Shown here piece by piece: positions 3,719 to 61,198 of a DNA stretch of 64,000 bases. The stretch comes from Candidatus Methanoperedenaceae archaeon (lineage in GTDB: Archaea > Halobacteriota > Methanosarcinia > Methanosarcinales > Methanoperedenaceae), in NCBI GenBank assembly GCA_963753595.1, contig CAVWCX010000024.1, positions 1-64,000 of the forward strand, in the 5' to 3' direction. Under the pieces are notes generated by a model, which saw only the letters and a program-made list of their open reading frames with translations, ran no database searches and was not told the DNA's origin. A program made the position numbers and the translations under genes. The number at the start of each line of letters is the position of its first letter. Within the stretch, counting starts at the first letter, position 1.

Positions 3719-4762
3719 TTAAATTATTCTAATAATATCATCAGGTCTTGCCCGCCTTACTAAACCGCTCAATGGATTTCGTATTCCCTGCATATTATAG
3801 GATTTTTTAGTCAAGATCATCAGACTTGCTTTTTTCCCCGTTTTTATGGAGCCTGTTTCTTTATCCATACCTGATAGTTTTGCTCCATTTAGCGTGCACA
3901 GCTTAAATACTTGTCTATCATCATAAAGATTTGTTTTGACAAGAAATTCCATCTCAGAAAACATATTAACGGAATTAAGCATTACATTATCAGTGCCCAC
4001 AGCGACAAGAATCCCCGCATCAAGCATTTTCGAAATTGGGGGAATCCCCGACCTTGTGATATAATTCGAGCGTGGGCAGACCACAACAGGAATATTTGCC
4101 TCTGCAATATCCTTAATATTTTTTTCTCCAGCCGTTGTAAGATGTATAAGGAAATCCGGATGAAGTTCAATTGCGCTGGAAATATCTGTTTGATCCCTTT
4201 CACCCGCATGTATTGCAAATTTCTTTTTTTTCTCCCTCGTTTGTCTCACAATATCCCGGATGTATTCATGTTCCAGGTCGTTCGTGCTGCTAAGTCCTGT
4301 CCCATCGCAGGATTCAAGATAATTCATACCTTCATCCTCCGGCCGTCCCAAAATCAAAGCTTTAATATCCGGATCGATCCTGAGGGCATCATTAAGCGCC
4401 TGTATCCCTGTAGAACCACCTTCACGAAAGTCACAAAAAGCGCAGGTTCCTGTTTTTTTCATATCCTGGATGCTTGCTTTTATTGAAGAGACAAGATCGG
4501 AATAAGAGGTTTCCCTTAAAATCCTGTGTTTTAAGCCGCCAGGAGGCTGCACGAGTTCAGGAAGAGGTAAAAAAGGGGGATCTTTTAAAACCGAATCACC
4601 TATATGAGTATGCGCATTCACAAAGCGTGGAGCTATTATTATATCAGTGGCAATATTACTTTCTTCAATGTTTTTTATTATGCCATTTTCTATAGTAATA
4701 TAACCATCAATCGGTTCAAACTCATCGCCGTATATTATTGTGCCCTTTAGGGTTTGCTCCAT
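3719..4762 (-). CDS. Amidohydrolase family metal-dependent hydrolase
   Basis: NAHTH, HAGE and GTDN metal-binding motifs. Confidence 0.88.
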   Translation of the reverse strand: MEQTLKGTIIYGDEFEPIDGYITIENGIIKNIEESNIATDIIIAPRFVNAHTHIGDSVLKDPPFLPLPELVQPPGGLKHRILRETSYSDLVSSIKASIQDMKKTGTCAFCDFREGGSTGIQALNDALRIDPDIKALILGRPEDEGMNYLESCDGTGLSSTNDLEHEYIRDIVRQTREKKKKFAIHAGERDQTDISSAIELHPDFLIHLTTAGEKNIKDIAEANIPVVVCPRSNYITRSGIPPISKMLDAGILVAVGTDNVMLNSVNMFSEMEFLVKTNLYDDRQVFKLCTLNGAKLSGMDKETGSIKTGKKASLMILTKKSYNMQGIRNPLSGLVRRARPDDIIRII

Positions 4763-4768
4763 GCTTTG

Positions 4769-6052
4769 TTATTTTTTCTTATAGTACATTCCAAAGACTG
4801 CTAATATCAGTAAGACAGAAACCGGAAATCCAAATCCCGGAGACCCTTTTGTTTGTGAAGGCTTAACAGTTGCAGCAGCCGGACTGGCCGTTGGTGCCAC
4901 TGTTGGCATAACTGTTGTTTCCTTAATAGCAGGTGTTGAGGTTGTTCCTGAAGAATACGCATACAATAGCCCGCTATGCGTTACTGCGAACAGCATATTG
5001 CCCGATATGGCAGGAGAAGTTATGTAATCCTTTTCATTATTCCCGGTTGAATTTTCCCAGAGCTTTTTTCCTGTATTGGCATCAAGTGCATATATCAAAT
5101 TATTTTTTATCCCAAAATATACAATATCATTTGAAATTGCCGGTCCGCTAAGAACAGAACCGGAATTGGGAAAATTCCAAATGACTTTTCCAGTTAATGC
5201 ATCAAGCGCAAAGAAATTTGAATCTGTTGAGCCAAAATAAACCACACCATTTTTCACGGATGGTGAAGACTCAACATTATTTTTCGTGGAAAATTTCCAT
5301 TTTAGTGTCCCTTTTTCGGTTGTAATTGCATAGACTGATCCGTCATTTGATCCCACAAATATTGTTCCGTCCGCTATGACAGGTGAAGACTTGATTTCAA
5401 GCTCTCCTGTATCATAACGCCATTTTTCTTTTCCTGTTGAAGCATCAAGCGCCACTATGTCTCCGCCATCAGTTCCAAATGCTATAATTCCTTCCCCGAC
5501 AGCCGGTGAGGATTCAGCCACTTTTCCAATAAGTGTGTGCCATATAATTTTACCATTACTGAGATCAAATGCATAAAAGGAACCATCGTTTGGCATTGCA
5601 TAAACCATGTTGTTAGCAATCGCAGCCGAAGCGGTATATCCATCCATGGCTGTATCATTTACCCATAGAAGGGTTCCATTTATTGCGTTTAAAGCATAGA
5701 ACTTGCGGTCATCTGCGCCAAAATACACAGCATCGTTTGAAACCGCCGGAACTGAATTCACAAATCCATTTGTGTGATATGCCCAGAGTTGCTGTCCAGT
5801 TCTTACATCCAGCGCATGGATACCAAAAGTTGTTCCGATATAAAGAACATCATTAACTATTACAGGGGACGAGTCGGTTTCAAATCCAAGAGCTTTTGTC
5901 CATTTTAACGTGAGCGGCGGATTAACCGCATCAGCTGTATAGCCGGAATGTGAAGGATCATTTTTAAACATGCTCCAATCGGCAGCAAATACCGGGACAA
6001 TTAGCATTGATACAAATACAAGACTTATTATTATCATCCTATCATTTTTCAT
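4769..6052 (-). CDS. Secreted PQQ-like beta-propeller cell-surface protein with PGF-CTERM sorting signal
   Basis: Signal peptide, repeated SSPAV/YALDAxTGxxxW blades, Thr/Pro linker, PGF + TM + KKK C-terminus. Confidence 0.9.
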   Translation of the reverse strand: MKNDRMIIISLVFVSMLIVPVFAADWSMFKNDPSHSGYTADAVNPPLTLKWTKALGFETDSSPVIVNDVLYIGTTFGIHALDVRTGQQLWAYHTNGFVNSVPAVSNDAVYFGADDRKFYALNAINGTLLWVNDTAMDGYTASAAIANNMVYAMPNDGSFYAFDLSNGKIIWHTLIGKVAESSPAVGEGIIAFGTDGGDIVALDASTGKEKWRYDTGELEIKSSPVIADGTIFVGSNDGSVYAITTEKGTLKWKFSTKNNVESSPSVKNGVVYFGSTDSNFFALDALTGKVIWNFPNSGSVLSGPAISNDIVYFGIKNNLIYALDANTGKKLWENSTGNNEKDYITSPAISGNMLFAVTHSGLLYAYSSGTTSTPAIKETTVMPTVAPTASPAAATVKPSQTKGSPGFGFPVSVLLILAVFGMYYKKK

Positions 6053-17636: not shown

Positions 17637-18238
17637 AGTTCACGAATTTCCTTATATTATTGTGCGTATCTCTAAGCCTTTATTTTTGGGGCACAAAAGA
17701 GAATCTTGCATTCAGTGAATACGCCCTTTTTCACGGTGCATATTATACTTTGTTGACAGGGCTTTTCGTGCATGCAAATTTTGTCCATCTTTTCGGGAAC
17801 ATGCTTTTCCTTTATGTTTTTGGCAACAGCCTGGAAGATGAAGTCGGAGCCTCCAAAACTGCCCTTGTTTTTTTTACGGGCGGCTTTCTTTCCTTCATTA
17901 TCAGCATACCGTTTTATCCAGGGGCGAACATGGTCGGGGCATCAGCTGCCATATTTTCAGTGATGGCTGCACTTTTGCTTATCCGCCGCCCGGGATACTC
18001 ATTCCAATTTCTTTCTCCAATTGGGCCCCTTGCGCTTTTGTATTTTATATTCAATATAATGGCTGTTAAAAACGCTACGGGTGGGAATGTTGCGTATTTA
18101 TCACATATATTTGGGTTTATCATAGGAATGTTTTTCGGAGCGAAATGGAACAAGAAGTGGAAGGAGAGCCTGTTTATTACTTTTGCATTATTAATCGCTT
18201 ATTTCATAGTATATATTTATTTGAGTAAATGGATTTAA
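17633..18238 (+). CDS. Rhomboid intramembrane serine protease
   Basis: HxxxxHLxxN, GASA and H...G motifs; multiple TM segments. Confidence 0.88.
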   Translation: MKFTNFLILLCVSLSLYFWGTKENLAFSEYALFHGAYYTLLTGLFVHANFVHLFGNMLFLYVFGNSLEDEVGASKTALVFFTGGFLSFIISIPFYPGANMVGASAAIFSVMAALLLIRRPGYSFQFLSPIGPLALLYFIFNIMAVKNATGGNVAYLSHIFGFIIGMFFGAKWNKKWKESLFITFALLIAYFIVYIYLSKWI

Positions 18239-18387: not shown

Positions 18388-19671
18388 ATGAAAATTTCAG
18401 TTATAGGAACAGGTTATGTTGGAACTGTAAGCGCAGCATGTTTTGCGCAACTTGGGCATGAAGTTATTTGTGTGGATATTGACAGGTCAAAAATTGATAA
18501 GATAAATGCAGGCATTCCTCCAATATATGAAGAAGGGCTTGCTGATCTTTTGAAAAAACATGCAGGGAAAAAATTGAGCGGGACTTCTGATTACAGGTAT
18601 GCAGTAATGAATTCCGATGTTTCATTCATATGTGTGGGGACGCCATCGGATCGTTCGGGAAATATCGAGCTTGGTATCGTTAAAGCGGCAAGTGCAAGCC
18701 TTGGGGATGCGCTAAAGGATAAAAAAGATTACCATGTTATTGTCGTAAAAAGCACAGTTGTGCCTGAAACCACTGAAAAAGTCGTATTGCCAATAATTGA
18801 AAAATATTCAAAGAAACGTTCCGGGGATTTCGGCATAGCCATGAACCCGGAATTCCTCAGGGAAGGAAAAGCAATTTATGATTTCATGCATCCTGATAAA
18901 ATAGTTGTCGGATCCCTTGATAAAAAAGCGGGGGATATTGTGGCATCCCTTTACAGCGGTCTTGATTGTGAGATAACCAGGACAAATCCAAGAACCGCTG
19001 AAATGATAAAATATGTCAATAATGCGTTCCTCGCAACAAAGATATCCTTTTCAAATGAAATAGGAAATATTTGCAAACAACTGGATATCAATACCTATGA
19101 AGTTATGAAAGCAGTTGGAAAGGATTTCAGGATCGGACCTCATTTTCTTAACTCCGGCGCCGGTTTTGGGGGCTCATGCTTTCCGAAGGATGTAAAAGCG
19201 CTTATCGGGAAGGCAAAATCGGTAGGATATGAACCTTTGATCCTTGAATCGGTTATCAAAGTGAACGAAAATCAGCCCGGACGGATGGTGTTATTGCTTA
19301 AAAAAGAACTTGGGAGTCTTAAAGGCAAAAAAATCGCCATTCTCGGATTAGCTTTCAAGAACGATACCGATGATATCAGGGAATCAAGAGCAATTCCAGT
19401 GATAAATGAACTGCTTGAAAATGGCGCAGAGGTTAGCGCTTATGATCCGATGGCAAACGAAAGCATGAGCCGGCTTTTTGAAAATGTCAAGTATCATTCG
19501 ACTGCTGCTCTTGCCCTGAAAGGAACAGATGCCTGCCTTGTAATGACCGAATGGGATGAATTTAAATCGCTTGATAAGGAATTTGACCTGATGGGAAACA
19601 AACTTATAATCGATGGCCGTCATATGCTTACTCCGCGAAAAGATATTAAATATGTAGGACTTTGCTGGTAA
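18388..19671 (+). CDS. ugd: UDP-glucose/GDP-mannose dehydrogenase
   Basis: GTGYVG, NPEFLREG, GFGGSCFPKD and AFKNDTDDIRES motifs. Confidence 0.93.
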   Translation: MKISVIGTGYVGTVSAACFAQLGHEVICVDIDRSKIDKINAGIPPIYEEGLADLLKKHAGKKLSGTSDYRYAVMNSDVSFICVGTPSDRSGNIELGIVKAASASLGDALKDKKDYHVIVVKSTVVPETTEKVVLPIIEKYSKKRSGDFGIAMNPEFLREGKAIYDFMHPDKIVVGSLDKKAGDIVASLYSGLDCEITRTNPRTAEMIKYVNNAFLATKISFSNEIGNICKQLDINTYEVMKAVGKDFRIGPHFLNSGAGFGGSCFPKDVKALIGKAKSVGYEPLILESVIKVNENQPGRMVLLLKKELGSLKGKKIAILGLAFKNDTDDIRESRAIPVINELLENGAEVSAYDPMANESMSRLFENVKYHSTAALALKGTDACLVMTEWDEFKSLDKEFDLMGNKLIIDGRHMLTPRKDIKYVGLCW

Positions 19672-19682
19672 AAGGAGATTTA

Positions 19683-20699
19683 ATGACAAATAAGATCAAA
19701 ATAGTAATTCCTGCGGCTGGAGCAGGAAAAAGGCTTTTTCCCCATACTTACACAAAACCAAAACCGATGGTGTATATCGCAGGAAAACCCATTATCGGCC
19801 ATATACTAGACAGGATGAAGGATGTAAATCCTGAGGAAATTATAATTATTGTAGGTTATAAGAAGGAACAGATAATATCTTATGTCGATGCAAATTATTC
19901 AGATGAATTCAATATACGTTATATTGACCAGGATGAGCAGTTAGGACTTGGTCATTCCATCTATACGGCAAGGGAGGCGATCGGGGATTCGGATATAATG
20001 ATAGCTCTTGGCGATATGATATTCAAGGCAGGATATATCGAATTTTATAATCATCACTTGAAAAATGGGGGCATATCAGGTTCAATTGGAGTACGGGAAG
20101 TAGAAGATCCCACAAAATATGGAATAGTCGAACTTGAAGCACATTACATAAAAAGCATGGAAGAAAAGCCAGTTCATCCGAAATCCAACCTGGGCATAGC
20201 CGGTGTATATTTCATTAAAGAAACCAGGGTCCTTATATCGATAATAGAAGAAATGATCAGGAAAGATACAAGGACGCGGGGTGAATACCAGCTCACAGAC
20301 GCATTACAGGAAATGGTAAATAGAGGTTACCGCCTGAAAACATTCCCTGTCTCAAGCTGGTATGATTGCGGCCATCCGGAGTCCCTGTTGGAAACAAACC
20401 GTGTGCTGCTTGATGAGAAACAGGATATAGATCATATCCATCAAATAAAAGATTCCGTAGTTATCCAACCGGTCGCGATCGGGGATAATGTTACGATCAT
20501 TAATTCTGTTGTGGGACCGCATGCCTCGGTCGCAAGTGATTCTTATATTGAGAACAGCATAATCTCAGACAGCGTTATAGGTTCGCGCTCTCACATATCA
20601 AAAGTCAATCTGCAAAGGTCTATAGTAGGAGATGATGCAAGCGTCCATGGTAAGCATAATTCCCTGAATATAGGAGATTCATCATCCATTGAATTCTAA
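19683..20699 (+). CDS. Sugar-phosphate nucleotidyltransferase (glucose-1-phosphate thymidylyltransferase-like)
   Basis: PAAGAGKRL..PKP, LGLGH, GEYQLTDAL motifs and C-terminal hexapeptide repeats; start MTNK assumed. Confidence 0.88.
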   Translation: MTNKIKIVIPAAGAGKRLFPHTYTKPKPMVYIAGKPIIGHILDRMKDVNPEEIIIIVGYKKEQIISYVDANYSDEFNIRYIDQDEQLGLGHSIYTAREAIGDSDIMIALGDMIFKAGYIEFYNHHLKNGGISGSIGVREVEDPTKYGIVELEAHYIKSMEEKPVHPKSNLGIAGVYFIKETRVLISIIEEMIRKDTRTRGEYQLTDALQEMVNRGYRLKTFPVSSWYDCGHPESLLETNRVLLDEKQDIDHIHQIKDSVVIQPVAIGDNVTIINSVVGPHASVASDSYIENSIISDSVIGSRSHISKVNLQRSIVGDDASVHGKHNSLNIGDSSSIEF

Positions 20700-27442: not shown

Positions 27443-27949
27443 ATGCTATCACATGACGAATTGATCTCCCTCATCAATGAAAAGCCTCCCCTTGTCGAAA
27501 AAATGATCGACCCTGATATCCAGGTACAGCCCAACGGTATTGAATTAACCCTGCAGCGTGTGGAATTTCATGATGGCCCGGGTTCTGTCGCTTTTGACAA
27601 CTCCGAAAGGAAACTCCCCCAGACAAAAAACCTTGATTTCGACAAGGACGGATGGCTGCATTTACCAAAAGGAAGCTATAAGATCGTATTCAATGAGTTC
27701 GTGAACATCCCTAAAAGCCTCGCAGCTATCGCAAAACCGCGCTCAAGCTTACTTCGGTGCGGCGTGACAGTGGAAACTGCCGTATGGGATGCCGGTTACA
27801 GCGGAAGGTCCGAGAGCCTTCTTGTGGTATATAATGAAAAAGGATTCAGGGTAAAAAAAGATGCGCGTGTGCTGCAGCTTTTGTTTTTCAGGCTTGGGGA
27901 AGAAGTCAGGAAAGGATATTCCGGCATATACCAGAATGAGAATGTCTGA
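27443..27949 (+). CDS. dUTPase / dCTP deaminase family protein
   Basis: QPNGIEL, PRSSLLRCG and AVWDAGYSG motifs; start MLSHDEL. Confidence 0.88.
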   Translation: MLSHDELISLINEKPPLVEKMIDPDIQVQPNGIELTLQRVEFHDGPGSVAFDNSERKLPQTKNLDFDKDGWLHLPKGSYKIVFNEFVNIPKSLAAIAKPRSSLLRCGVTVETAVWDAGYSGRSESLLVVYNEKGFRVKKDARVLQLLFFRLGEEVRKGYSGIYQNENV

Positions 27950-28142
27950 AAATAAAATCGTTCAATTTATATTAGTGAAAGTCATAGAAGTAGCGGCGGA
28001 ATCTATGAATATACTAGATATTACTGAAGATAAGATCTTCAAAACCTTAGGAAAAGGCAAAGCTTCGGATTATAAACCAAAAGAAAAAACCAGTCAGAAA
28101 AAGGATCTTGAACCTTTCGATTACAGTCGCCTTTTAGAATAA
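27942..28142 (+). CDS. Small hypothetical protein
   Basis: Short ORF overlapping the dUTPase stop; start uncertain. Confidence 0.35.
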   Translation: MSENKIVQFILVKVIEVAAESMNILDITEDKIFKTLGKGKASDYKPKEKTSQKKDLEPFDYSRLLE

Positions 28143-28173
28143 ACATTGGATCATCATCGGGATGATCTATTAT

Positions 28174-28725
28174 CTATTTTTTTGCCAGATCAAAATAATA
28201 CTTCATTTTACAGCTCTGCTCCACGAGCGCCGTAACAAAATAAGCTTCCTCCAGCGTTTTTCCGGCAGCAAATGTCCCGTGCCCATAAACGATAACTCCT
28301 TTATGGGAGCCAAGCGCTTGTGCTGCGTTATCTGCAAGTTCCTGCGACCCGGAGGCGCCTTTTACTACAGGTATCTCATGCAGGAAATATTCACCTTCGA
28401 TGTTTATCGGAACAATTGGTTCACTTTCAACAAGCATTGACTCAATAACTGAAAAAAAAGGATGCGCATGGATTACCGAAAGCGCCGGAGTATTTTTGTA
28501 TATAGTCCTGTGAACTATGTTTTCTGATGAAGCGATTGGATCAAGGCTTGAAGGTTTACCAATATCCAATTCCACGACACTGTTCTTGTTTATCTCATCA
28601 AGAGGAACTCCGGTTTTGGTGATCAGCATCTTATCACCATCGCGGATGCTGATATTCCCGAATTGTGATCCCACAAGGGCGCTGTCCACGAGTTTTTTCC
28701 CGAATTTTGAAATATCTTTCCACAT
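28174..28725 (-). CDS. Class II aldolase/adducin family (FucA-like)
   Basis: GNIS, SSE..H, HAHP and GHG motifs. Confidence 0.88.
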   Translation of the reverse strand: MWKDISKFGKKLVDSALVGSQFGNISIRDGDKMLITKTGVPLDEINKNSVVELDIGKPSSLDPIASSENIVHRTIYKNTPALSVIHAHPFFSVIESMLVESEPIVPINIEGEYFLHEIPVVKGASGSQELADNAAQALGSHKGVIVYGHGTFAAGKTLEEAYFVTALVEQSCKMKYYFDLAKK

Positions 28726-33875: not shown

Positions 33876-33935
33876 AGTGGCGGGAGAAAATCCCGCAGGG
33901 ATGTGGCCTTACAAGGCTGAACCGTAAAACTAAAC
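33876..33935 (+). promoter_or_regulatory. Structured 5' leader of rpl15e (consistent with the eL15-Euryarchaeota ribosomal leader)
   Basis: GCGGGA-GAAAA-TCCCGC hairpin and GCCTT-AC-AAGGC hairpin immediately upstream of the eL15 SD. Confidence 0.6.
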
Positions 33936-33945
33936 TGGAGAAAAC

Positions 33946-34533
33946 ATGAAATCAATGTACGCGTTCATCAGGGACGCTTGGAAAAAACCCGACGAATCAG
34001 GTGTCGGTGAACTCTTATGGGAAAGAATGCAGGTATGGAGACGCGAACCGGCAGTAACAAGGCTGGACCATCCGACAAGACTTGACAGGGCAAGAGCCCT
34101 TGGTTTTAAAGCAAAACAGGGTATTGCAGTAGCACGCGTGAGAATAAGACGCGGAGGAAGGCGAAAATCAAGATGGCAGCGCGGAAGACGAACCAAACAC
34201 ATGGGCGTCAATAAGATCACACCTGGAAAGAGCATCCAGAGTATTGGTGAAGAGCGTGTAGCACGCAGATTCCCAAATATGCAGGTTTTGAACAGCTATT
34301 GGGTAGGTCAGGACGGCAAACACAAATGGTATGAGGTAATAGTCGTTGACCCGAACCATCCTTCGATAAAGGTTGATAAAAACCTTAAATGGATGTGCAG
34401 TAATAAACAGAAAGGCCGCGTATTCAGAGGAAAGACAAGCGCAGGCAGAAAGGGCAGGGGCCAGAGACGAAAGGGCATAGGAACTGAGAAAACAAGACCC
34501 AGCCTGAGATCCCACCACAATACTGGCAAATGA
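33946..34533 (+). CDS. rpl15e: 50S ribosomal protein L15e
   Basis: [28 protein letters not shown] and RGKTSAGRK motifs. Confidence 0.97.
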
Positions 34534-34949
34534 GTATACATTATATCACTTTTCGGGCAAGCGTTCACGCTACCGAAAGTGATGACAGGGTAAAAACAGC
34601 CCTGTCGCTTTTTCTTTTTGATAATAAGATAACGCAAACACAGACCGAAGGTCATTTTGGCAATCCAATTACCTTACTTCAGGGACAGGTCAGGGGTAAA
34701 GACTACAAACGTTTTATAGATCTTTTAAAATCAAGTTTGCCGGAATATGAGCTTGAAAAGCTAAGGAATGAACGATGCGAGAGGATCGATGATGAATGCT
34801 GTTTGCATATCAGGTTCGATAAGCAGGCTGCTTTTGAAGGACAGGTCAGGCTTGCAACGACTGCCGATACGATAATAGCAAAAATAAAGATTAGAGCATA
34901 TCCGGCTAATTACGAAAATGCAATTGAGGCTGCAGAAGCTCTTTTTTGA
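34530..34949 (+). CDS. DUF54/UPF0201 RNA-binding protein
   Basis: HATES..V, GHFGNPI and RFDKQAA motifs; conserved neighbour of rpl15e. Confidence 0.85.
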
Positions 34950-35186: not shown

Positions 35187-35259
35187 GCCTGGGTGGGGTA
35201 GCTGGTTATCCTATGGGACTGTGGATCCTACGACCCGGGTTCGAATCCCGGCCCGGGCC
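35187..35259 (+). tRNA. tRNA-His (GTG)
   Basis: Cloverleaf: acceptor GCCTGGG/CCCGGGC, D arm GGGT..ATCC, anticodon loop CT-GTG-GA, T arm CCGGG-TTCGAAT-CCCGG, discriminator C. Confidence 0.93.
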
Positions 35260-36273: not shown

Positions 36274-36479
36274 AATTCCTTTACAAAATTTTGTATATTG
36301 CTTCCCGTAACGGTATTTATCCACCAAAATCCCGTTACGCAATACATACAATAATTTCCCGTTACGCAATTGTGTATGTTGATTTCCGTAACGGTATTTA
36401 TGGACTGAAATTCCGTTACGGGATTTGACCAGAAAAATCCCGTTACGCAATTCGTCTAAAAAATTCCCGTTACGGGAAG
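36274..36479. repeat. Array of 17-bp palindromes with an exact 27-bp period and variable 10-nt linkers
   Basis: CCGTWACGS cores at 36305, 36332, 36359, 36386, 36413, 36440 and 36467, plus a degenerate copy at 36278. Confidence 0.92.
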
Positions 36480-36648
36480 TAAGTATAATATTTTTATTTA
36501 AACCTCTTATTTTAATTTATAGGACACGTTCTATAATCTGGCAAAGGTTAATCTATCCCTGGCAATAATTATCATTAGGATATTTTTTTGTTTTTAAAAA
36601 TATTTGCGTTTTTTGGGCAAAAAACACCCAAAAAAAGGCAAAAGCAGT

Positions 36649-36684
36649 AAAAACTGTATATAATATTTGTTATATACAGTTTTT
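36649..36684. other. dif-like tyrosine-recombinase site (11-6-11)
   Basis: ACTGTATATAA-TATTTG-TTATATACAGT; perfect arms extend to 15 bp; TATAA-N6-TTATA core as in archaeal dif sites. Confidence 0.7.
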
Positions 36685-36694
36685 TTGGCTAAAA

Positions 36695-37105
36695 ATGAAT
36701 CGAAATCTCTATTTGATGTTAGTAATATTTTATGCCGACGTGACCAATAAAAAATACATCAGAAAGAACTATATAACCTGCAGCAGATGCGGAAGAAAAA
36801 AAATCCATCATGCACATGGATTATGCAGTGGATGCTATATGTCGGTTCATCGAATAGAACAGATAAAAAAACATAACGCTGAAGCGTATCATAATATTCC
36901 CTACGATTTATACCTAAAAATAACAGAAAAATGCTACATATGCGGTTTTGATTCTATAGTTGAACTTCATCATATTGATGAAAACCATGAAAATATATCC
37001 TTGAATAACCTTGTCGGTTTATGTCCTAATCACCATGCTATGATCCATCATAGAGATTTCAATACAGAAATAAAAAAATTGATAACTTGTATTCAAATCC
37101 AATAA
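36695..37105 (+). CDS. Zn-ribbon + HNH endonuclease-like protein
   Basis: CxxC..H..GLCxxC N-terminal Zn module; CYICG...ELHHIDENH..N...NLVGLCPNHH HNH domain; exact start uncertain. Confidence 0.85.
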   Translation: MNRNLYLMLVIFYADVTNKKYIRKNYITCSRCGRKKIHHAHGLCSGCYMSVHRIEQIKKHNAEAYHNIPYDLYLKITEKCYICGFDSIVELHHIDENHENISLNNLVGLCPNHHAMIHHRDFNTEIKKLITCIQIQ

Positions 37106-37178
37106 ATCCAAAGCTCATTTATAAAATATTATAGGGATAATTATAATAATATCAAACTCCATTAATGAAAACTGATTT

Positions 37179-38009
37179 ATGATAGTAGATGAGCGTCTTA
37201 AAAAGCTTAACACTGAGGCAAAGTTGAGAGGCTTCTCACCTCAGACAACAAAAATGTATTTGTTTTATAATCAGAAATTACTTGAATATACAAGAAAGGA
37301 ACCAGCAGATATCACAGAAGATGACATAAAAGATTATCTGGGATCCAAACTTTCTGACGATTCACTTTCAAATGCTACGATAGCGCTAATAAAAGCTGCC
37401 TTTAAATTTTTTTATACAGAAATTCTTGGAAAAAATATCTCTCAAATAAAAACTCCAAAGAGGTCACAAAAACTTCCAATAGTCCTTAGCCGGACTGAGA
37501 TAAAAAACCTCATTGAAAAAACAGAAAATATCAAGCACAGGCTTATAATTGAACTCCTCTATTCCACCGGTTTGAGACTTTCAGAATGTATCAACCTGAA
37601 ATATTCTGACCTTGATCTAAATGATGGTATAGGCTGGGTTCGTTTGGGAAAAGGTTCAAAAGACAGAATTTTTATTATTTCTGAGGTATTCAAGAAAGAT
37701 CTCCTCGACTACAAAGAGAAAAATGGTTCAGATGGAAAAGGATACATATTTTTAGTAAATGGTAAAAAAATGACATATAGAGGCATTCAGCACGCCATAA
37801 AAGTATCCGCTTTGCGCGCCGGCATCGAGAAATCCGTGCATGTGCACACGCTGCGGCATTCTTTTGCAACACACCTTCTTGAGAACGGTGTCGATATAAG
37901 GAAAATACAAAAGCTGCTTGGGCATTCGAATTTACAGACTACGCAGATATACACACAGGTATCTTCTGAGGAGATAAAGAAGATCAAAAGCCCGCTGGAT
38001 ATGCTTTGA
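37179..38009 (+). CDS. XerA/XerD-like tyrosine recombinase
   Basis: Complete catalytic set: TGLRLSE (R), GKGSK (K), HTLRH, LGH and TTQIY; N-terminal SAM-like domain; no integron-specific insertion apparent. Confidence 0.93.
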   Translation: MIVDERLKKLNTEAKLRGFSPQTTKMYLFYNQKLLEYTRKEPADITEDDIKDYLGSKLSDDSLSNATIALIKAAFKFFYTEILGKNISQIKTPKRSQKLPIVLSRTEIKNLIEKTENIKHRLIIELLYSTGLRLSECINLKYSDLDLNDGIGWVRLGKGSKDRIFIISEVFKKDLLDYKEKNGSDGKGYIFLVNGKKMTYRGIQHAIKVSALRAGIEKSVHVHTLRHSFATHLLENGVDIRKIQKLLGHSNLQTTQIYTQVSSEEIKKIKSPLDML

Positions 38010-38019
38010 TGTTATAAAT

Positions 38020-38047
38020 AAAATATATAATAATATTTATATTATTA
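38020..38047. other. Degenerate dif-like site just downstream of the recombinase
   Basis: AAAATATATAA-TAATAT-TTATATTATTA; AT-rich, so it could be a chance match. Confidence 0.4.
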
Positions 38048-38329
38048 CTATTTTATCTCGCTTTGATGTTGGTCATATATCAGTCTTTCTTTTTCTTTCT
38101 TTAGTTCCATTTCCCTGCGAGCAATTGCTTTCATAGCTTCAGTAGGTTTATAGTTCAAATTGATCCTGTGTTTCTGCTCCCGGGTATATACAACATAACC
38201 ATACAACAGGAATGCAACTGTTGCGATCGGTATCAGAAATACCCATCCGACAACAAAACCCATAAAAGCTAACCCTATCAATGAGACAAACCCAAGTCTT
38301 AACTTTCTATTCTTAAAGATTTCCTTCAT
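38048..38329 (-). CDS. Small membrane protein
   Basis: 93 aa, hydrophobic N-terminal hairpin, charged C-terminus; GGGAG SD. Confidence 0.65.
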   Translation of the reverse strand: MKEIFKNRKLRLGFVSLIGLAFMGFVVGWVFLIPIATVAFLLYGYVVYTREQKHRINLNYKPTEAMKAIARREMELKKEKERLIYDQHQSEIK

Positions 38330-38425
38330 ATCGAAACTCCCTTTTCATTACATTTCATATTTCTACTCCATAGTGATAATTGTTTCGTAGGAGAACGAAC
38401 TAACTATTGAATATAATTTGTATTT

Positions 38426-38469
38426 AATTGCGTAACGGAATTTTTTTGAATGATTAGCGTAACGGAATT
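38426..38469. repeat. Two 17-bp palindromes, 27 bp apart
   Basis: AATTGCGTAACGGAATT (38426) and ATTAGCGTAACGGAATT (38453). Confidence 0.85.
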
Positions 38470-38526
38470 TATAGAATATCTTTGAAAGATTAGTCAGTAA
38501 TATTTCCCATTTTAATATGATGAGTA

Positions 38527-38618
38527 AGTGGGCAGAAAGGGGGATTATGGTGGTATAGAAAAAATTTCTCTGCCCACTACAATTCGTATATATACGAACA
38601 AAACTATATATAGTTTAC
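38527..38618 (-). ncRNA. Putative small hairpin RNA unit 1 (TATA + TTCG-N8-CGAA operator + stem-loop)
   Basis: Minus strand: AAACTATATATAG..TTCGTATATATACGAA..GTAGTGGGCAGA-loop-TCTGCCCACT; paralog at 38665-38765. Confidence 0.45.
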
Positions 38619-38664
38619 GTTTCTTGTAAAATCACATATTATCCTCTAAAACCTGGTATAGGAG

Positions 38665-38765
38665 GTAGTGGGCTTTTGGGATTTATGGTGGTGTGGTATC
38701 GAAAAAAAATATTTTTCTGCCCACTACAATTCGTATATATGCGAACCAAAGTATTTATAGTTTAC
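38665..38765 (-). ncRNA. Putative small hairpin RNA unit 2
   Basis: Minus strand: AAACTATAAATAC..TTCGCATATATACGAA..GTAGTGGGC-loop-GCCCACTAC. Confidence 0.45.
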
Positions 38766-38863
38766 TGTCATAATCATTATAAGTATTAATATGCATGAAT
38801 ATCTGACCTGGAACACCTGTTGCTTGTATCGTTGCTCGTTATAATTTCACGATTCTTATAACA

Positions 38864-38931
38864 AAATCCGTAACGGCATTTCTAACAAAAAATTGCGTAA
38901 CGGCATCTTTATATATTCCCGTAACGCAATT
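38864..38931. repeat. Three 17-bp palindromes (27- and 24-bp spacing)
   Basis: Cores at 38868, 38895 and 38919. Confidence 0.85.
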
Positions 38932-38939
38932 AGAATATC

Positions 38940-39185
38940 ATGACTGAACGTAAATATACCCGCTGGAAAAAATGCCTTATATGTGATGATTTTGTAAAAC
39001 TCATGTTCCCGGAGGACGCAAAGGATATGCTCATGATCTACGAACCCGTAGAAGGAATGAGCGATGAATCCGGGAACTGGAAAAAAAAACAAATGGGATA
39101 TATACACCGGTCATGTCTTCTAAAAGCAGCATCACTGAAGCCAAACAATGAAGAAAGAAACAGCAGTAGTTCAGAGGTCGTATAG
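38940..39185 (+). CDS. Small Zn-finger-like hypothetical protein coupled to ubiD
   Basis: CxxC...HxxC; stop overlaps the ubiD start. Confidence 0.6.
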   Translation: MTERKYTRWKKCLICDDFVKLMFPEDAKDMLMIYEPVEGMSDESGNWKKKQMGYIHRSCLLKAASLKPNNEERNSSSSEVV

Positions 39186-40627
39186 TGGCATATAAGGATT
39201 TAAGGGAATTTATTGAAGTTCTCGAAAAACGAGGACTTCTGAAGCGGATAAAAACAGAAGTAAGTGCAGAGCTTGAGATCACTGAAATTCTTGACAGGTG
39301 TATGAAAAATAACGGCCCTGCACTTCTTTTTGAAAATGTATTAGGCTATAAGATGCCTGTATTTGCAAATGCGTTCGGTACAATGGAACGAATGTGCCTT
39401 GCACTTGACGTAAATGATCTTGATGAAATCGGTGCAAGGATAAAAAAGCTCATGGAATTTGAAGCCCCATCCGGATTATGGGAGGGAATAAAAAAGCTGC
39501 CTGAGGTAGTTGAACTTACATCATTTGCCCCCAAATATGTAAGATCAGGCCCGTGCAAAGAAGTAATTCTTAAAGATAAATTTTCACTTGATGATTTCCC
39601 TGTATTGAAATGCTGGCCCGGGGACGGGGGGCGCTTTATAACGCTTCCTCTTGTATTCACAAAAAACCCAAAAACCCGGAAGCAGAACGTAGGAATGTAC
39701 AGGATGCAGGTATATGATGCAAAAACAACAGGCATGCACTGGCATATCCATAAACACGGGGCGAGGGATTACGCTGATTCAGCAGGTAACGGAAAAATCG
39801 AGGTTGCCGTCGCTATCGGGGCAGATCCTTCTGTTGTATATTCAGCAACTGCGCCGCTTCCCGATAATATCGATGAGATAATGTTTGCCGGGTTCCTCCG
39901 TAAAAAGAACGTGGAGCTTGTTAAATGTGAAACTGTTGACCTTTATGTCCCCGCACATGCCGAAATTATCCTTGAAGGATATGTGGATGAAAAAGAGCGC
40001 CGCACAGAAGGACCTTTCGGCGACCACACAGGATATTATTCACTCGCAGATGAGTTCCCGGTATTCCATATAACATGCATTACACACCGAAAGAATCCCA
40101 TTTATCATGCCACCATCGTGGGAATACCGCCAATGGAAGACGCATATCTTGGAAAAGCAACAGAAAGGATCTTCCTTCCGCTCATGAAAGCCCAGCTTCC
40201 TGAAATTGTCGATGTCAACCTGCCTGTTGAAGCTGTTTTCCATAACCTGTGCATTGTATCCATAAAAAAGCGGTATCCAGGACATGCAAAGAAAGTCATG
40301 TTCGCACTCTGGGGAATGGGACAGATGATGTTCGCTAAGACCATAATCGTGCTTGATGATGATGTGAATATCCAGGACATGAGGGAAGTTCTCTGGGCAA
40401 CAACGACGCGAATGGATCCTGCCAGGGATGTTACGATCATTGATAATGCGCCGACAGATACGCTTGATCATGCTTCGAAAATGGCCAACCTCGGTTCCAA
40501 AATGGGAATTGATGCCACACGAAAAGGACAGGATGAAGGATTCAACCGGGAATGGCCTGATGCTTTGAAAATGGATGCAAGAGTAAAAGCGCGGGTGGAT
40601 ACGATATGGAAGGAGCTCGGATTATAA
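39185..40627 (+). CDS. ubiD: UbiD-family decarboxylase (menaquinone biosynthesis type)
   Basis: WPGDGG, NVGMYRMQ, EGPFGDHTGYY and LDHAS..GSKMGIDAT motifs. Confidence 0.92.
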   Translation: MAYKDLREFIEVLEKRGLLKRIKTEVSAELEITEILDRCMKNNGPALLFENVLGYKMPVFANAFGTMERMCLALDVNDLDEIGARIKKLMEFEAPSGLWEGIKKLPEVVELTSFAPKYVRSGPCKEVILKDKFSLDDFPVLKCWPGDGGRFITLPLVFTKNPKTRKQNVGMYRMQVYDAKTTGMHWHIHKHGARDYADSAGNGKIEVAVAIGADPSVVYSATAPLPDNIDEIMFAGFLRKKNVELVKCETVDLYVPAHAEIILEGYVDEKERRTEGPFGDHTGYYSLADEFPVFHITCITHRKNPIYHATIVGIPPMEDAYLGKATERIFLPLMKAQLPEIVDVNLPVEAVFHNLCIVSIKKRYPGHAKKVMFALWGMGQMMFAKTIIVLDDDVNIQDMREVLWATTTRMDPARDVTIIDNAPTDTLDHASKMANLGSKMGIDATRKGQDEGFNREWPDALKMDARVKARVDTIWKELGL

Positions 40628-40673
40628 TCAAACGTTGAATGCAAACAGAGGCAGAGCTGCGTGGTTACAAGGA

Positions 40674-41438
40674 TCAATCTTTACCCAGGTCTTCCCCTCC
40701 ATAATATATCTGCTGCACTGTATTGTATATGTCTTCCATGCCCGAGCCATAAGTCGATGAGACCGGAATAATATTCTGGCTTGCCCCAAATGATTTGAGC
40801 GCCGAAAGGAATTCAATACTTAGCTGGCTTTGCATCGTAGGTACCTCGTTGTGGATATCATCTTCAAGATCCATGATATTCCTGCTCCAGTTGATTATCC
40901 TGTCACGTTCTTCATCTTTTAGAAGGTCGGATTTCGGAAGGATATTTAAGAAAGGAACGTTGAACCGCATCTGGACTGATGCCGCCTGGAGCATTAATGA
41001 AATAAATCCCGATGGGGTTTTTGAGATTATGGGGTCATAGAGAAAACCAATGATCGACTGGTCGGCGCCAAGAGTATCAATGAGGAATTTCCCGGACTGG
41101 CGAAGCACAAACAGTTCCATCTGCCCGGGCGTGTCAAAAATAACATAATCGGATTCAAAGCTTTCAATTATATCTTTCATTTCATCGATATTTAAAGCAA
41201 GGAGGTCAGCTGCTATGATCTGTGCCCCGTTTGGCCCGACTCCATATTCCTTCATTACATCGTCCAATTTTACCCAGTCACGGATATCCACATCAGGGAC
41301 ATAAGGAGCATTTTCGATGCCAGGGTCAAGATTTACCGTAATTGCATCATATCTCTGGTTCTCCATCCATCCAAAAAAAGCATTTGTAAGTGAAGATTTA
41401 CCACTTCCCGCCGAGCCGATAAAATAAAGATTGATCAT
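40674..41438 (-). CDS. GPN-loop GTPase
   Basis: GSAGSGKS, VNLDPG, GPNGA and DTPGQME motifs. Confidence 0.92.
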   Translation of the reverse strand: MINLYFIGSAGSGKSSLTNAFFGWMENQRYDAITVNLDPGIENAPYVPDVDIRDWVKLDDVMKEYGVGPNGAQIIAADLLALNIDEMKDIIESFESDYVIFDTPGQMELFVLRQSGKFLIDTLGADQSIIGFLYDPIISKTPSGFISLMLQAASVQMRFNVPFLNILPKSDLLKDEERDRIINWSRNIMDLEDDIHNEVPTMQSQLSIEFLSALKSFGASQNIIPVSSTYGSGMEDIYNTVQQIYYGGEDLGKD

Positions 41439-41477
41439 AGTAATTATAGCTTATATCGGTCAAGAGAGAAAAGATTA

Positions 41478-42359
41478 TTGATGTTAAAAAAATTGAAATT
41501 ATATGCTGATTTCGTGGTCCTGAAACATACGCTTTTTGCTATCCCTTTTGCCTATCTTGGCGCAATCCTGGCAAGTAAAGGCATTCCGGAACTTCGGATT
41601 TTGTTCTGGGTCGGCCTTGCGTTCCTGGGAGCGCGAAGCGCTGCGATGGCGTTGAATAACCTTATTGACAAAGATATTGATGCAAAAAATCCCAGGACAG
41701 CAAATCGCGAATTGCCTGCTGGCAAAATATCATTATCCGAAGTCTGGGGAATAATACTCATATCTTATTTTTTCCTTTTTTACTCTGCGTACAAACTGAA
41801 TCCATTATGCCTTTTCCTTGCACCCATCATTCCGATTACGTCAATAATATATCCATATCTTAAAAGGTATCTTCCCATATCGCATTTTGTCCTTGGTCTG
41901 AATCTTGGTTATGCGCCTGTGGGAGGATGGCTTGCCGTAACGGGAGACTTTAATCTTCCATTTGGAGTGCCAGAGCTTACGATGCTGCTTCTTCTTTTTG
42001 CCGTAACATTCTGGGTTGCCGGTTTTGATATAATATATTCACTTCAGGATATTGATTATGACATAAAGAATAAGTTGTATTCTGTGCCAGCCATTTTCGG
42101 TGTAAAGAAAGCCCTCTTTGCTTCTTTTTTGTCACATATTCTGATGCTTATACTTCTGGTTGGCCTGATGTCAGTGCTGAAACTTGGGATTATTTTCAAG
42201 GTGGGCCTGATCGTTATTGCTGCTCTTATATTGTATGAACATTCGCTTGTTAAGGCTGACAATTTCAAAAATGTTCCGATGGCGTTCTTTAATGTGAATG
42301 CTGCTGTGAGTTTGAGCATGCTGGGGTTTACAATGATGGATATTGTTTTAAGGTTATGA
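41478..42359 (+). CDS. ubiA: UbiA-family prenyltransferase (MqnP-like)
   Basis: HTLFA, NNLIDKDIDAKNPRT and FDIIYSLQD motifs. Confidence 0.9.
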   Translation: MMLKKLKLYADFVVLKHTLFAIPFAYLGAILASKGIPELRILFWVGLAFLGARSAAMALNNLIDKDIDAKNPRTANRELPAGKISLSEVWGIILISYFFLFYSAYKLNPLCLFLAPIIPITSIIYPYLKRYLPISHFVLGLNLGYAPVGGWLAVTGDFNLPFGVPELTMLLLLFAVTFWVAGFDIIYSLQDIDYDIKNKLYSVPAIFGVKKALFASFLSHILMLILLVGLMSVLKLGIIFKVGLIVIAALILYEHSLVKADNFKNVPMAFFNVNAAVSLSMLGFTMMDIVLRL

Positions 42360-42378
42360 AATCAATAGTAATCCCAAA

Positions 42379-42557
42379 ACCGTAAAGAGCGCAAAAGGTA
42401 TAATAATTGTTCTTTGCGCTCTGGTATGAAAAAACAACGAACTAATACCAACTGAAACGAACTCAAGCTACCAGAGTTCGTTCGTGTTCGTTTATGTTCG
42501 TTGTTTTTTTTCATTTTTATTTATGAATCGGGAGGATTCATGGCCGACTTTGCGGTG
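42379..42557. repeat. Nested inverted-repeat elements (CGAAC/GTTCG type inside a CGCAAAG/CTTTGCG type)
   Basis: AAAACAACGAACTAATACCAACTGAAACGAACTC..GAGTTCGTTCGTGTTCGTTTATGTTCGTTGTTTT at about 42430-42510; outer AGAGCGCAAAAG/CTTTGCGCTCT. Confidence 0.7.
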
Positions 42558-59035: not shown

Positions 59036-61198
59036 ATGGATAAAAAGGAAGAAGAGTTTCTCAAGAAACTTCTCTCAACATTTAAAATCGAGGCAAAAGA
59101 GCACCTGGATGCAATAACTTCAGTCCTGATCGAGCTTGAAAAAGCTACTTCCGGAAAGGAGATGGAACTTATTGAAACGGTCTTCAGGGAAGCACACAGC
59201 CTCAAAGGTGCAGCCCGTTCCGTAAATTTAAAAGATATTGAGTCACTTTGCCAGTCAATGGAAAATATATTTGCATCGTTGAAACGCAAAGAGATTGCCC
59301 CCTCCCCACAAATATTCGACGTGCTTCATATTGCTGCTGATTATATCAGCAGACTGATAGCCAGGGAAGAAGAAATAAATATTCCAGAAAAAACTAAGAT
59401 CAAGGAAATTATCCATGACCTCGAAAGCATATTAAAAGGCGTTCCAATTCAACAACGCGAAAAGTCACTGGTTGAAGAGGAACCTGAAAAAACAGACGAA
59501 TCCCAATCCTCGCCATCGGTAGAAACTGTCAGGATCTCTACGGCAAAATTAGACTCGCTCTTATTCCAGGCAGAAGAGATGCTTTCTGTAAAACTTTCAG
59601 CAGGCCAGCAAGCAGTTATGTTGCGAGAGAGTGCAGCCTCTTTTGCAGTATGGAAAAAAGAATTTGAACATATAAAGCCCGATTTTGCGATGCATGATTT
59701 CATAAGATCACTTGAAACCAGGTTAACACTGCTTGCCAGGACCGCTGAATATGACAACAGGCACTTTGGGGGAATGGTGGACAATCTGCTTGGTGATATG
59801 AAAAGTGTGCTGATGCTGCCATTCTCATCACTTTCAGGGGGTTTCCCAAAGCTTGTCCGTGACCTTTCGCATGACAGGGGTAAAGAAGTGGAACTGATAA
59901 TTGAAGGAGAAGATATCGAAATCGACAGGCGGATCCTGGAAGAAATGAAAGACCCGCTCATTCACTTATTAAGAAATTGCATCGACCATGGCATTGAAAA
60001 GCCTGATGAACGCAGGCTTATGAAGAAAATGCCATGTGGAACCATCAGGCTTGCCTTAAATTCAAGAGATGGCAGCAAGATCGAGATCAAGATATCAGAT
60101 GATGGGGCTGGGATCGACGCTTCACTGATAAAGTCTGCTGCCATAAAGCGCGGTATCATAACCCATGAAAAAGCCGGAAAACTCAATGATGAGGAGGCTC
60201 TCTCACTTATTTTCAAGTCAGGGATTTCCACAAGCCCGATCATTACTGAAGTTTCAGGAAGGGGGCTTGGCCTTGCAATAGTTTACGAGAAAGTGGAAAA
60301 ACTGAACGGGATCGTTTCTTTCCAGACACGGGTAGGTATCGGGACAACATTCAGGATCATTGTTCCTCTTACCCTTGCTACATTCAGGGGATTATTAGTC
60401 CAGGTGAACGAACAGCTTTTTGTTCTTCCGGTGACAAATGTTGAAAGAGCGTTAAGGGTCAGGAATGACCAGATAAAAACCATGGAGAACCGCGAAACCA
60501 TTACTCTTAACGGTGAGGTCATTTCACTTGCCAGGCTTGGGAATGTCCTGGAACTTCCCGGAAAAAATAAGAGCGATCCTGATAAGAACACACAGATAGC
60601 GATCCTTGGGTCTTCCGGGAAACACATTGCGTTCACTGTGGATGAAATCCTTAACGAACAGGAAGTGCTGGTGAAAAGCCTGGGCCGGCAGCTGTCTCGT
60701 GTACGAAATATTTCCGGTGCAACTGTGCTTGGAAGCGGCAAGGTTGCGCCAATCCTGAATGTTCATGATCTACTAAAGTCAGCAGTGAAGGGATCTGATG
60801 CCGCCACACCTGTTGTGACAGAAGCAAAGACTAAAAGAAATTCTGTGCTGGTAGCGGAAGATTCGATAACATCAAGGACTTTACTTAAGAATATTCTGGA
60901 AACTGCCGGTTATGATGTCAAAACAGCGGTTGATGGTGTGGATGCTTTTACTCTATTAAAAAACCAGGAGTTTGATTTAGTGGTATCTGATGTGGATATG
61001 CCAGGGATGAACGGGTTTGAGCTCACGGCGAAGATCCGCGCCGATAAAAAGATATCAGAGCTGCCGGTTGTACTTGTTACCGCGCTTGAATCCCGTGAAC
61101 ATAAAGAGCGAGGGATAGCGGTAGGGGCAAATGCATACATCGTGAAAAGCAGTTTTGACCAGAGCAATTTGCTTGAAGTTATCCAGAGGTTGATATGA
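59036..61198 (+). CDS. cheA: Hybrid CheA-receiver histidine kinase (WspE-like)
   Basis: HPt (AHSLKGAA), HATPase (RNCIDHG, DDGAG, SGRGLGL), CheW and C-terminal REC domains. Confidence 0.94.
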   Translation: MDKKEEEFLKKLLSTFKIEAKEHLDAITSVLIELEKATSGKEMELIETVFREAHSLKGAARSVNLKDIESLCQSMENIFASLKRKEIAPSPQIFDVLHIAADYISRLIAREEEINIPEKTKIKEIIHDLESILKGVPIQQREKSLVEEEPEKTDESQSSPSVETVRISTAKLDSLLFQAEEMLSVKLSAGQQAVMLRESAASFAVWKKEFEHIKPDFAMHDFIRSLETRLTLLARTAEYDNRHFGGMVDNLLGDMKSVLMLPFSSLSGGFPKLVRDLSHDRGKEVELIIEGEDIEIDRRILEEMKDPLIHLLRNCIDHGIEKPDERRLMKKMPCGTIRLALNSRDGSKIEIKISDDGAGIDASLIKSAAIKRGIITHEKAGKLNDEEALSLIFKSGISTSPIITEVSGRGLGLAIVYEKVEKLNGIVSFQTRVGIGTTFRIIVPLTLATFRGLLVQVNEQLFVLPVTNVERALRVRNDQIKTMENRETITLNGEVISLARLGNVLELPGKNKSDPDKNTQIAILGSSGKHIAFTVDEILNEQEVLVKSLGRQLSRVRNISGATVLGSGKVAPILNVHDLLKSAVKGSDAATPVVTEAKTKRNSVLVAEDSITSRTLLKNILETAGYDVKTAVDGVDAFTLLKNQEFDLVVSDVDMPGMNGFELTAKIRADKKISELPVVLVTALESREHKERGIAVGANAYIVKSSFDQSNLLEVIQRLI

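Follow-up and report, generated by a model that had tools for sequence, protein, structure and literature searches.

What is encoded by a short stretch of DNA in which a promoter, a regulator-type palindrome and a potential hairpin occur twice in the same order? This arrangement is found in the genome of a Candidatus Methanoperedenaceae archaeon (GenBank assembly GCA_963753595.1, contig CAVWCX010000024.1). The window analyzed here is the stretch of 64,000 nt that comprises positions 1 to 64,000 of this contig. In the initial annotation, the two elements were taken for repressor-controlled small RNAs which block translation initiation or, alternatively, for type I antitoxin-like RNAs that act on a neighboring gene for a small membrane protein.

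Organization of the two units

The minus strand carries the two units (unit A, 38765-38655; unit B, 38618-38518) in tandem, and direct reading finds their parts in identical order. Each unit begins with GTAAAC-TATAWATA, which is followed after 6 nt by a palindrome (TTCG(C/T)ATATATACGAA) and then by a helix that closes an open loop of 28-45 nt. The open loop of both units contains a U-run plus ACCACCAUAA(A)UCCC (read as DNA: ACCACCATAA(A)TCCC). Every detail of this promoter-palindrome-hairpin pair could be re-read in the sequence as initially described, and the shared loop motif is present in both units as it was written. A repeat finder assigned the units to one repeat family (D3), with 60 nt at 90% identity and a spacing of 147 nt.

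In unit A, the core promoter (38752-38765) consists of the BRE-like GTAAAC (38765-38760) and the TATA box TATAAATA (38759-38752). Six bases further on is the operator, TTCGCATATATACGAA (38730-38745), an MsvR-type inverted repeat that separates the TATA box from the predicted start and is followed by TT. The predicted RNA of ca. 73 nt (38655-38727) would start at G38727, a position deduced from the TATA spacing only. Its 5' arm, GTAGTGGGC (38727-38719), is paired with the 3' arm, GCCCACTAC (38673-38665). The loop has an A-run, then a U-run of eight (38709-38702) and the C-rich motif ATACCACACCACCATAAATCCC (38699-38678). The tail reads CTCCTAT from 38664, with TTTT at 38649-38646; its 3' end is not defined.

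In unit B, the core promoter (38605-38618) consists of GTAAAC (38618-38613) and the TATA box TATATATA (38612-38605). The operator, TTCGTATATATACGAA (38583-38598), is a perfect palindrome that corresponds to TTCGTA-N4-TACGAA. The predicted RNA is ca. 63 nt long (38518-38580) and would start at G38580. A 5' arm of 14 nt (38580-38567) is paired with a 3' arm (38538-38524) that has one bulged U. The loop carries a U-run of six (38564-38559) and the C-rich motif ATACCACCATAATCCCCC (38556-38539). The tail is devoid of a clear T-run, and the 3' end is undefined.

Both predicted RNAs fold more stably than their dinucleotide shuffles (unit A, -16.7 kcal/mol, z -5.83; unit B, -18.7 kcal/mol, z -6.25).

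A conserved RNA helix

In each RNA, the 5' end pairs with a stretch ca. 50-60 nt downstream. The helix was assessed in a MAFFT alignment of 22 members from five families, which was not fitted to the structure. It has 11 pairs, and 90.9% of the cells are paired, compared to 35-42% when the partners are slid. Changes on both sides of a pair occur in eight of the 11 pairs (50 cells), as opposed to 2-7 pairs (2-16 cells) with slid partners, and covariation scores 0.477, versus at most 0.148 in the controls. None of 500 shuffles reached the values observed for this alignment, the number of pair types being the one exception. All 22 diverse members fold to one shape. Within the Methanoperedens subfamily, covariation is modest, because the helix sequence is nearly invariant there, yet it is above that of the controls; one of the supporting alignments was fitted to the model.

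The assignment of the strand rests on the promoter. A near-invariant BRE/TATA precedes the helix, its columns being invariant or at least 90% conserved among 45 aligned copies, and the TATA box is at an equal distance in members retrieved with an RNA-only model (R2, see below). When the TATA box is centered at -27, as mapped for msvR from Methanosarcina acetivorans, the predicted start is the G at the first position of the helix. With respect to the strand, wobble pairs are ambiguous. In the eight core pairs, 16 G-U versus 3 A-C favor the minus strand, whereas the four outer and often unpaired positions have 40 A-C versus 9 G-U.

The loop contains an internal T-run (T6-T9), with at least five T in 76 of 78 copies. 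A T-run of at least four within 45 nt past the tail is found in 44 of 78 copies. Internal U-runs of this kind resemble Sm/Lsm sites, and a gene for an LSM protein is present in the genome. The internal run may be an Lsm site, or it may instead be a partial terminator. As a terminator, it could end archaeal transcription ahead of the 3' arm. Judged from the covarying helix and the conserved promoter, the units are structured non-coding RNA genes, for which start, end and strand are predicted. Among public RNA runs, none was listed for the region 36500-42500 of the window.

Distribution and copy number of the RNA family

When the unit pair was used as a BLAST query, copies were found in all 53 Methanoperedenaceae genomes searched, and most of these have several. 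In the genome under study, other copies of the promoter-operator unit are located on contig 2 (two copies), contig 20 and contig 27 (one each), where they are sited between unrelated and mostly convergent genes. An exact pattern scan of ca. 185,000 prokaryotic genomes (one per species) returned 61 loci. According to their titles, 44 are from Methanoperedens or Methanoperedenaceae, 16 have an unspecific archaeal assignment, and one is attributed to Nanoarchaeota (a contig of 2.7 kb).

Two covariance models were used, and their genome counts must be read with the caveat that related genomes are not independent and that the model E-values are rough. Model R1 covers the promoter plus the RNA (unit A, 108.3 bits; unit B, 119.2 bits). 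It matches all 33 other genomes from the family and, weakly, some genomes from other families. The weak matches have a like RNA shape and the loop motif ACCCCCACUCCCC, with differing helix sequences (e.g. GUGAGCGGG/CCCGCUCAC) and no palindrome. From 22 such sequences, representing five families, the RNA-only model R2 was built (unit A, 49.9 bits; unit B, 57.3 bits). R2 has a match in 140 of 141 genomes from the order, the single exception being a genome that is 56% complete, and in 118 of 121 genomes from a sample of the class (Methanosarcinia). In a sample of the phylum, all 22 other in-class genomes are matched, while only three of 118 genomes outside the class are matched, and these weakly. 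The check with covariance models across genomes, which had been suggested initially, thus confirms that the stem is kept, and the family extends far beyond the local pair.

A Methanoperedenaceae genome has 3-27 copies according to R2, a genome from one of the remaining families of the order 1-6, and the genome under study 18. Twelve of the latter are additional members, located on contigs 7 (27930-28178, 85769-85836 and 134882-134960), 29 (2598-2856), 33 (4349-4775), 13 (17667-17739), 34 (59832-59894) and 2 (34485-34557). They are mostly organized as tandem or divergent pairs, and each has a TATA box at equal distance. Most have the class-type loop ACCCCCACUCCCC or a variant of it. Among these twelve, an MsvR-type box is found only for the copy on contig 13 (TTCGCGTAACAGCGAA). 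The AUG-complementary CAU is specific for the subfamily, and relatives elsewhere in the class have CCCCCACUCCCC.

Viral contigs yielded no match to the RNA family. Rfam 15 has no match in the region at gathering score; when E-values up to 10 were accepted, three chance-level matches were obtained. Based on the model matches, units A and B are members of an RNA family that is conserved throughout Methanosarcinia and strongly expanded in Methanoperedenaceae.

The MsvR-type operator

According to the available text of PMC3729527, MsvR from Methanothermobacter and Methanosarcina binds a partial inverted repeat, TTCGTAN4TACGAA, which is generalized to TTCGN7-9CGAA, and this motif precedes all msvR genes. 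The protein from M. acetivorans (MaMsvR) is described there as binding DNA only when reduced, and the motif alone as being insufficient for binding (rpoK fragment). This description agrees with the operator that had been named for the palindromes in the initial annotation.

The palindrome pattern has four matches in the window (two sites, each on both strands), compared to a mean of 0.03 in shuffles, and none of 100 shuffles reaches four. The site at 38583-38598 is a perfect MsvR motif, while that at 38730-38745 deviates at a single position (TTCGCA). Of 82 subfamily copies, 79 have TTCG-N8-CGAA, always six bases past the TATA box and ending 2-3 bases ahead of the helix. Archaeal repressors that bind between the TATA box and the start are placed where they block the recruitment of RNA polymerase.

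The strict MsvR motif occurs 10 times in the genome, five of these at RNA genes, and less than one occurrence is expected as estimated from base composition. Two further, imperfect boxes of the MsvR type are found at RNA genes on contigs 20 and 13. A full box is lacking in 11 of the 18 members from this genome and in all 11 copies that were inspected from other families, one of which has a half-site. From this distribution, the box is the mark of a single subfamily and was apparently acquired in Methanoperedenaceae.

The genome codes for MsvR (contig 12, 247 aa; NCBIfam NF053755, 253 bits with a cut-off of 220; Pfam HTH_5 plus V4R), and a relative is encoded in 52 of 53 genomes from the family. 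In all six Methanoperedens msvR loci examined, an invariant TTCGTACATAAACGAA is located 4 nt before the TATA box. Of the initial proposal of repressor-controlled sRNAs, several elements are upheld, namely a covarying helix, individual promoters, an operator that matches the MsvR motif, and an MsvR encoded in the genome; control by MsvR itself is a candidate assignment.

A similar box is seen at a protein-coding gene. The gene for a 93-residue membrane protein has TTCG-N8-CGAA (38384-38399) and then ACAATTAT, 40-55 nt before its start codon. The same holds for a paralog with 74% identity (contig 30, 15178), while two more distant paralogs are devoid of the box. The gene and its closest paralog may also be MsvR-controlled, as suggested by these upstream sites.

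Loop motifs and the search for targets

The open loop exposes the U-run and the C-rich motif (ACCACCAUAAUCCCC), including CCACC and UCCCC. Among Methanoperedens copies, the motif ACCACCAU / ACCACCAT occurs one to three times per loop, and CCCCCCACTCCCC is found twice in one Methanosarcinaceae copy. In at least 39 of 78 copies, the 3' arm is followed by CCTCC or CTCCT. The tail of unit A, ACCUCCUA, equals the last bases of the 16S rRNA from the same genome, GGAUCACCUCCUAA; the 16S rRNA ends with GGATCACCTCCTAA, and ACCTCCTA is common to this end and the tail. Units A and B thus have an unpaired C-rich motif that is complementary to Shine-Dalgarno (SD) sequences, as is looked for in a trans-acting sRNA that masks SD sequences.

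For pairing of the loops with specific start regions, no target stands above the shuffled or reversed controls. The complement of the loop, allowing up to three mismatches in 17 nt, has 11 matches in the genome, four of which are the opposite strands of the RNA genes themselves, and no target in a start region is evident among them. The complement of the class-type loop has seven matches; five are exact and correspond to the opposite strand of genes detected with R2, the sixth (two mismatches) is within an R2 match, and the seventh is on contig 37. Duplex energies for 2915 start regions did not separate these from gene interiors or from shuffled loops, and the energies look inflated by A/U runs. 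Helices of at least 11 bp are possible at 40 sites (six being opposite strands of the RNA genes), compared to 26-46 for reversed or shuffled cores. The only such helix in a start region involves the loop of unit B and GGGGGGTTATG at -8 of a gene for a 329-residue protein, which is about the chance expectation. Loop-complementary 8-mers are found 44 times at start regions versus 28 times inside genes, and the reversed control has 24 versus 13. Pairing of more than 8 nt was found neither with a 16S stretch on contig 31 (which does not carry the 23S gene) nor with 35 tRNAs. The underlying gene calls (2920 ORFs) are home-made and rough, so that ranks which depend on start sites are approximate.

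The gene for the 329-residue protein is present in four identical copies, on contigs 2 (92866-93852), 3 (19658-20644) and 24 (143522-144508 and 176651-177637). From its copy number, it probably codes for an insertion-sequence transposase.

Proposed function and alternative interpretations

As members of a conserved RNA family with a box of the redox-repressor type, units A and B are probably stress-switched regulatory RNAs. We propose that units A and B are tandem, independently promoted ncRNA genes (ca. 65-75 nt), which are repressed by MsvR, induced by oxidation, and damp translation initiation via C-rich single strands. To this proposal as a whole we assign an even chance. In this model, reduced MsvR would occupy the box, and recruitment of RNA polymerase would be blocked. 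Under oxidizing conditions, the box would be freed of MsvR and the RNAs would be made. By base pairing of their C-rich single strands with the G-rich Shine-Dalgarno or start regions on mRNAs, translation initiation would be damped, with Lsm possibly bound at the U-run during sRNA action. A block of translation initiation by the RNAs from units A and B is plausible by analogy with SD-masking sRNAs.

Since no target was found, a protein-binding or decoy role is a serious rival. The RNA would be real but would serve as a decoy or RNP scaffold, with the stem and the ACCUCCU tail mimicking the 16S 3' end, while CCACCA/CCCC and the U-run hold Lsm, KH-domain proteins, or factors for ribosome maturation or initiation. 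Variable numbers of motif repeats within one loop are typical of titrating RNAs, and the near-invariance of the motif throughout the class would suit one conserved partner. The conserved internal U-run, the LSM gene in the genome and the lack of a long-seed mRNA target point in the same direction. However, gene neighborhoods differ between the copies and indicate no partner, and sRNAs that target SD sequences have C-rich loops just as typically. Overall, we consider this role rather unlikely. It is tempting to speculate further that the entire family consists of class-wide mimics of the 16S 3' end, in which a helix precedes or encloses C-rich single strands of the anti-SD type, that Methanoperedens has amplified the genes (up to 27 per genome) and brought a subset under MsvR, and that an oxidant floods the cell with decoys, which compete for SD-led mRNAs with the 30S subunits or sequester factors that bind the 16S tail. 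This is a doubtful proposition; if true, the RNAs would be a global and reversible brake on translation initiation, and not a gene-specific control. Another question concerns the palindrome, which might be no MsvR site at all, being a symmetric TATA element in addition to the first (TATATATA) or a binding site for another regulator, in which case the RNAs would not be redox-controlled. Its center is itself a perfect TATA sequence, some TTCG-N8-CGAA sites were left unbound by MaMsvR according to the available text of PMC3729527, and the 11 aligned copies from outside the family have no full box and a single half-site. On the other hand, the half-sites TTCGTA/TACGAA extend beyond the AT core and are conserved in the 79 of 82 subfamily copies, a like half-site is invariant before msvR in all six genomes, nearly all family genomes (52 of 53) code for MsvR, and the upstream BRE/TATA is already correctly spaced for a start at the helix. 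With the evidence distributed in this way, a palindrome unrelated to MsvR is not very probable.

The remaining interpretations are improbable. The units might act mainly as DNA, or via transcripts of 25-35 nt that stop at the T-run, and would then be bidirectional terminators, insulators or protein-binding repeats. The internal T-run is indeed the most conserved one, an A-run precedes it so that a T-run exists on both strands, and several copies are located between convergent genes. Nevertheless, compensatory changes tie the 5' arm to an arm beyond the T-run, and both arms are therefore needed in one RNA. In addition, the best-conserved part of the loop is the stretch past the T-run, and many members from the class have a run of at least five T right after the tail, which leaves this interpretation with little probability. 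The initial suggestion of cis-antisense or type I antitoxin-like RNAs, which would control the 93-residue membrane protein (38048-38329, minus strand), is not supported and is very unlikely. The gene for this small hydrophobic protein is 190 nt downstream on the same strand, and it shares with its closest paralog the upstream TTCG-N8-CGAA, so that co-regulation is possible. The RNAs and the gene do not overlap, however, among 2915 genes, its start region has rank 804-1155 for pairing with loop or tail, the gene is beside the units in only four of 32 related loci, and the copies on contigs 2, 20 and 27 lack such a neighbor, having unrelated ones. That the units encode small proteins is even harder to believe. 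There are ORFs of 30-37 codons on the plus strand and GTG frames of 10-13 codons on the minus strand. However, units A and B have plus-strand ORFs that differ in frame and are unrelated to each other, loop lengths differ by non-multiples of three, and the conserved CCACCAT is distributed equally over all three frames as counted from the 5' GTG (26/25/23 across 74 copies).

Genomic neighborhood

The RNA gene pair is located downstream of a gene for a tyrosine recombinase (37179-38009, plus strand). A setting within a mobile element, with a phage integrase as neighbor, was considered and is ruled out: the recombinase is an equivalog of chromosomal XerA (NCBIfam NF040815, 261.7 bits with a cut-off of 220), and synteny recurs. 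Of 32 related loci, 11 have xerA in synteny and with 78-89% identity, and 10-11 have the order xerA, RNA gene(s), small Cys-rich ORF, ubiD. As judged from this gene order, the RNA gene pair occupies a stable chromosomal site.

The small Cys-rich ORF codes for 81 residues including Cys and His (38940-39185, plus strand), ends at the start of ubiD, and is conserved at 10 of the 32 related loci, with 70-93% identity. Another Cys/His-rich ORF of 136 residues (36695-37105, plus strand) is located before xerA. Neither of these two ORFs has a match in Pfam.

An 8-mer (CCGTTACG/CGTAACGG) forms clusters at 36274-36483, 38431-38465 and 38869-38931, partly with a 27-nt period. Seven copies are at 36306-36474, two at 38431-38465 and two at 38869-38903, and a one-mismatch variant is at 38917-38931. 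There are 14 matches in the window versus 0.43 expected by chance, and 11 of the 27 sites in the 2.9-Mb genome are found here. The array flanks the RNA gene pair on both sides and also lies upstream of an HNH-like ORF and xerA. Another genome has a comparable 27-nt array at the syntenic locus. In appearance, the cluster resembles a series of binding sites for a regulator or of iterons.

Ordinary features of the window include a ribosomal protein leader (Rfam eL15-Euryarchaeota, 45.8 bits) and a gene for tRNA-His (33881-33928 and 35187-35259, respectively).

Relation to known systems and significance

The closest parallel for the operator is the MsvR regulon of Methanothermobacter thermautotrophicus and M. 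acetivorans. As far as described in the available text of PMC3729527, it shares with the present locus TTCGTA-N4-TACGAA in the core promoter, an encoded MsvR, and a box before msvR. The known MsvR targets are protein genes (msvR, and fpaA-rlp-rub in M. thermautotrophicus), whereas here the box precedes non-coding RNA genes. It also differs in position, as it is upstream of TATA in the known system, while the predicted site is between TATA and start in the RNA genes, which occur in several copies per genome.

Among archaeal sRNAs, a review (PMC5867862, as far as its text was available) describes sRNA41 and loop 2 of sRNA154 from Methanosarcina mazei as masking ribosome binding sites, and sRNA154 as being made only under nitrogen limitation. 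Judged by this description, these sRNAs are likewise intergenic but differ from units A and B in regulator, size and fold, sRNA154 having two stem-loops. One of the 3-4 family members in Methanosarcina may already bear a number such as sRNA41 in primary papers.

A further likeness is found in Firmicutes. RsaE/RoxS, a short sRNA, uses unpaired C-rich motifs for pairing with SD regions that are rich in G, and its transcription is tied to redox-sensing regulators. It is bacterial, shows no sequence relation to units A and B, and has two hairpins plus a terminator as compared to one closing helix. In archaea, M. mazei sRNA154 is controlled by the repressor NrpR. Archaeal C/D box sRNAs likewise have ca. 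60-70 nt and paired 5' and 3' ends, but neither the C box (RUGAUGA) nor the D box (CUGA) is conserved in units A and B. As hints to C/D box RNAs, Rfam has only plus-strand matches with 17.7 and 10.6 bits, compared to gathering scores of 47 and 60.

In the searchable literature, we found no characterized small RNA from anaerobic methane-oxidizing archaea, no sRNAs or MsvR described for Methanoperedens, and no sRNAs under MsvR; primary papers or their supplements may list members from Methanosarcina. Searches with the motif strings retrieved unrelated papers only.

The family is present in nearly every Methanosarcinia genome sampled and in almost none outside, and it is absent from Rfam. Model R2 is therefore a handle for finding these RNAs in existing Methanosarcina transcriptomes, and genetics is available in Methanosarcina to test the function of the family. 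MsvR is known only for the regulation of protein genes. With an MsvR-type box in front of its genes, a family of sRNAs present in several copies would be the first candidate for a post-transcriptional arm of the oxidative-stress response in methanogens and ANME archaea.
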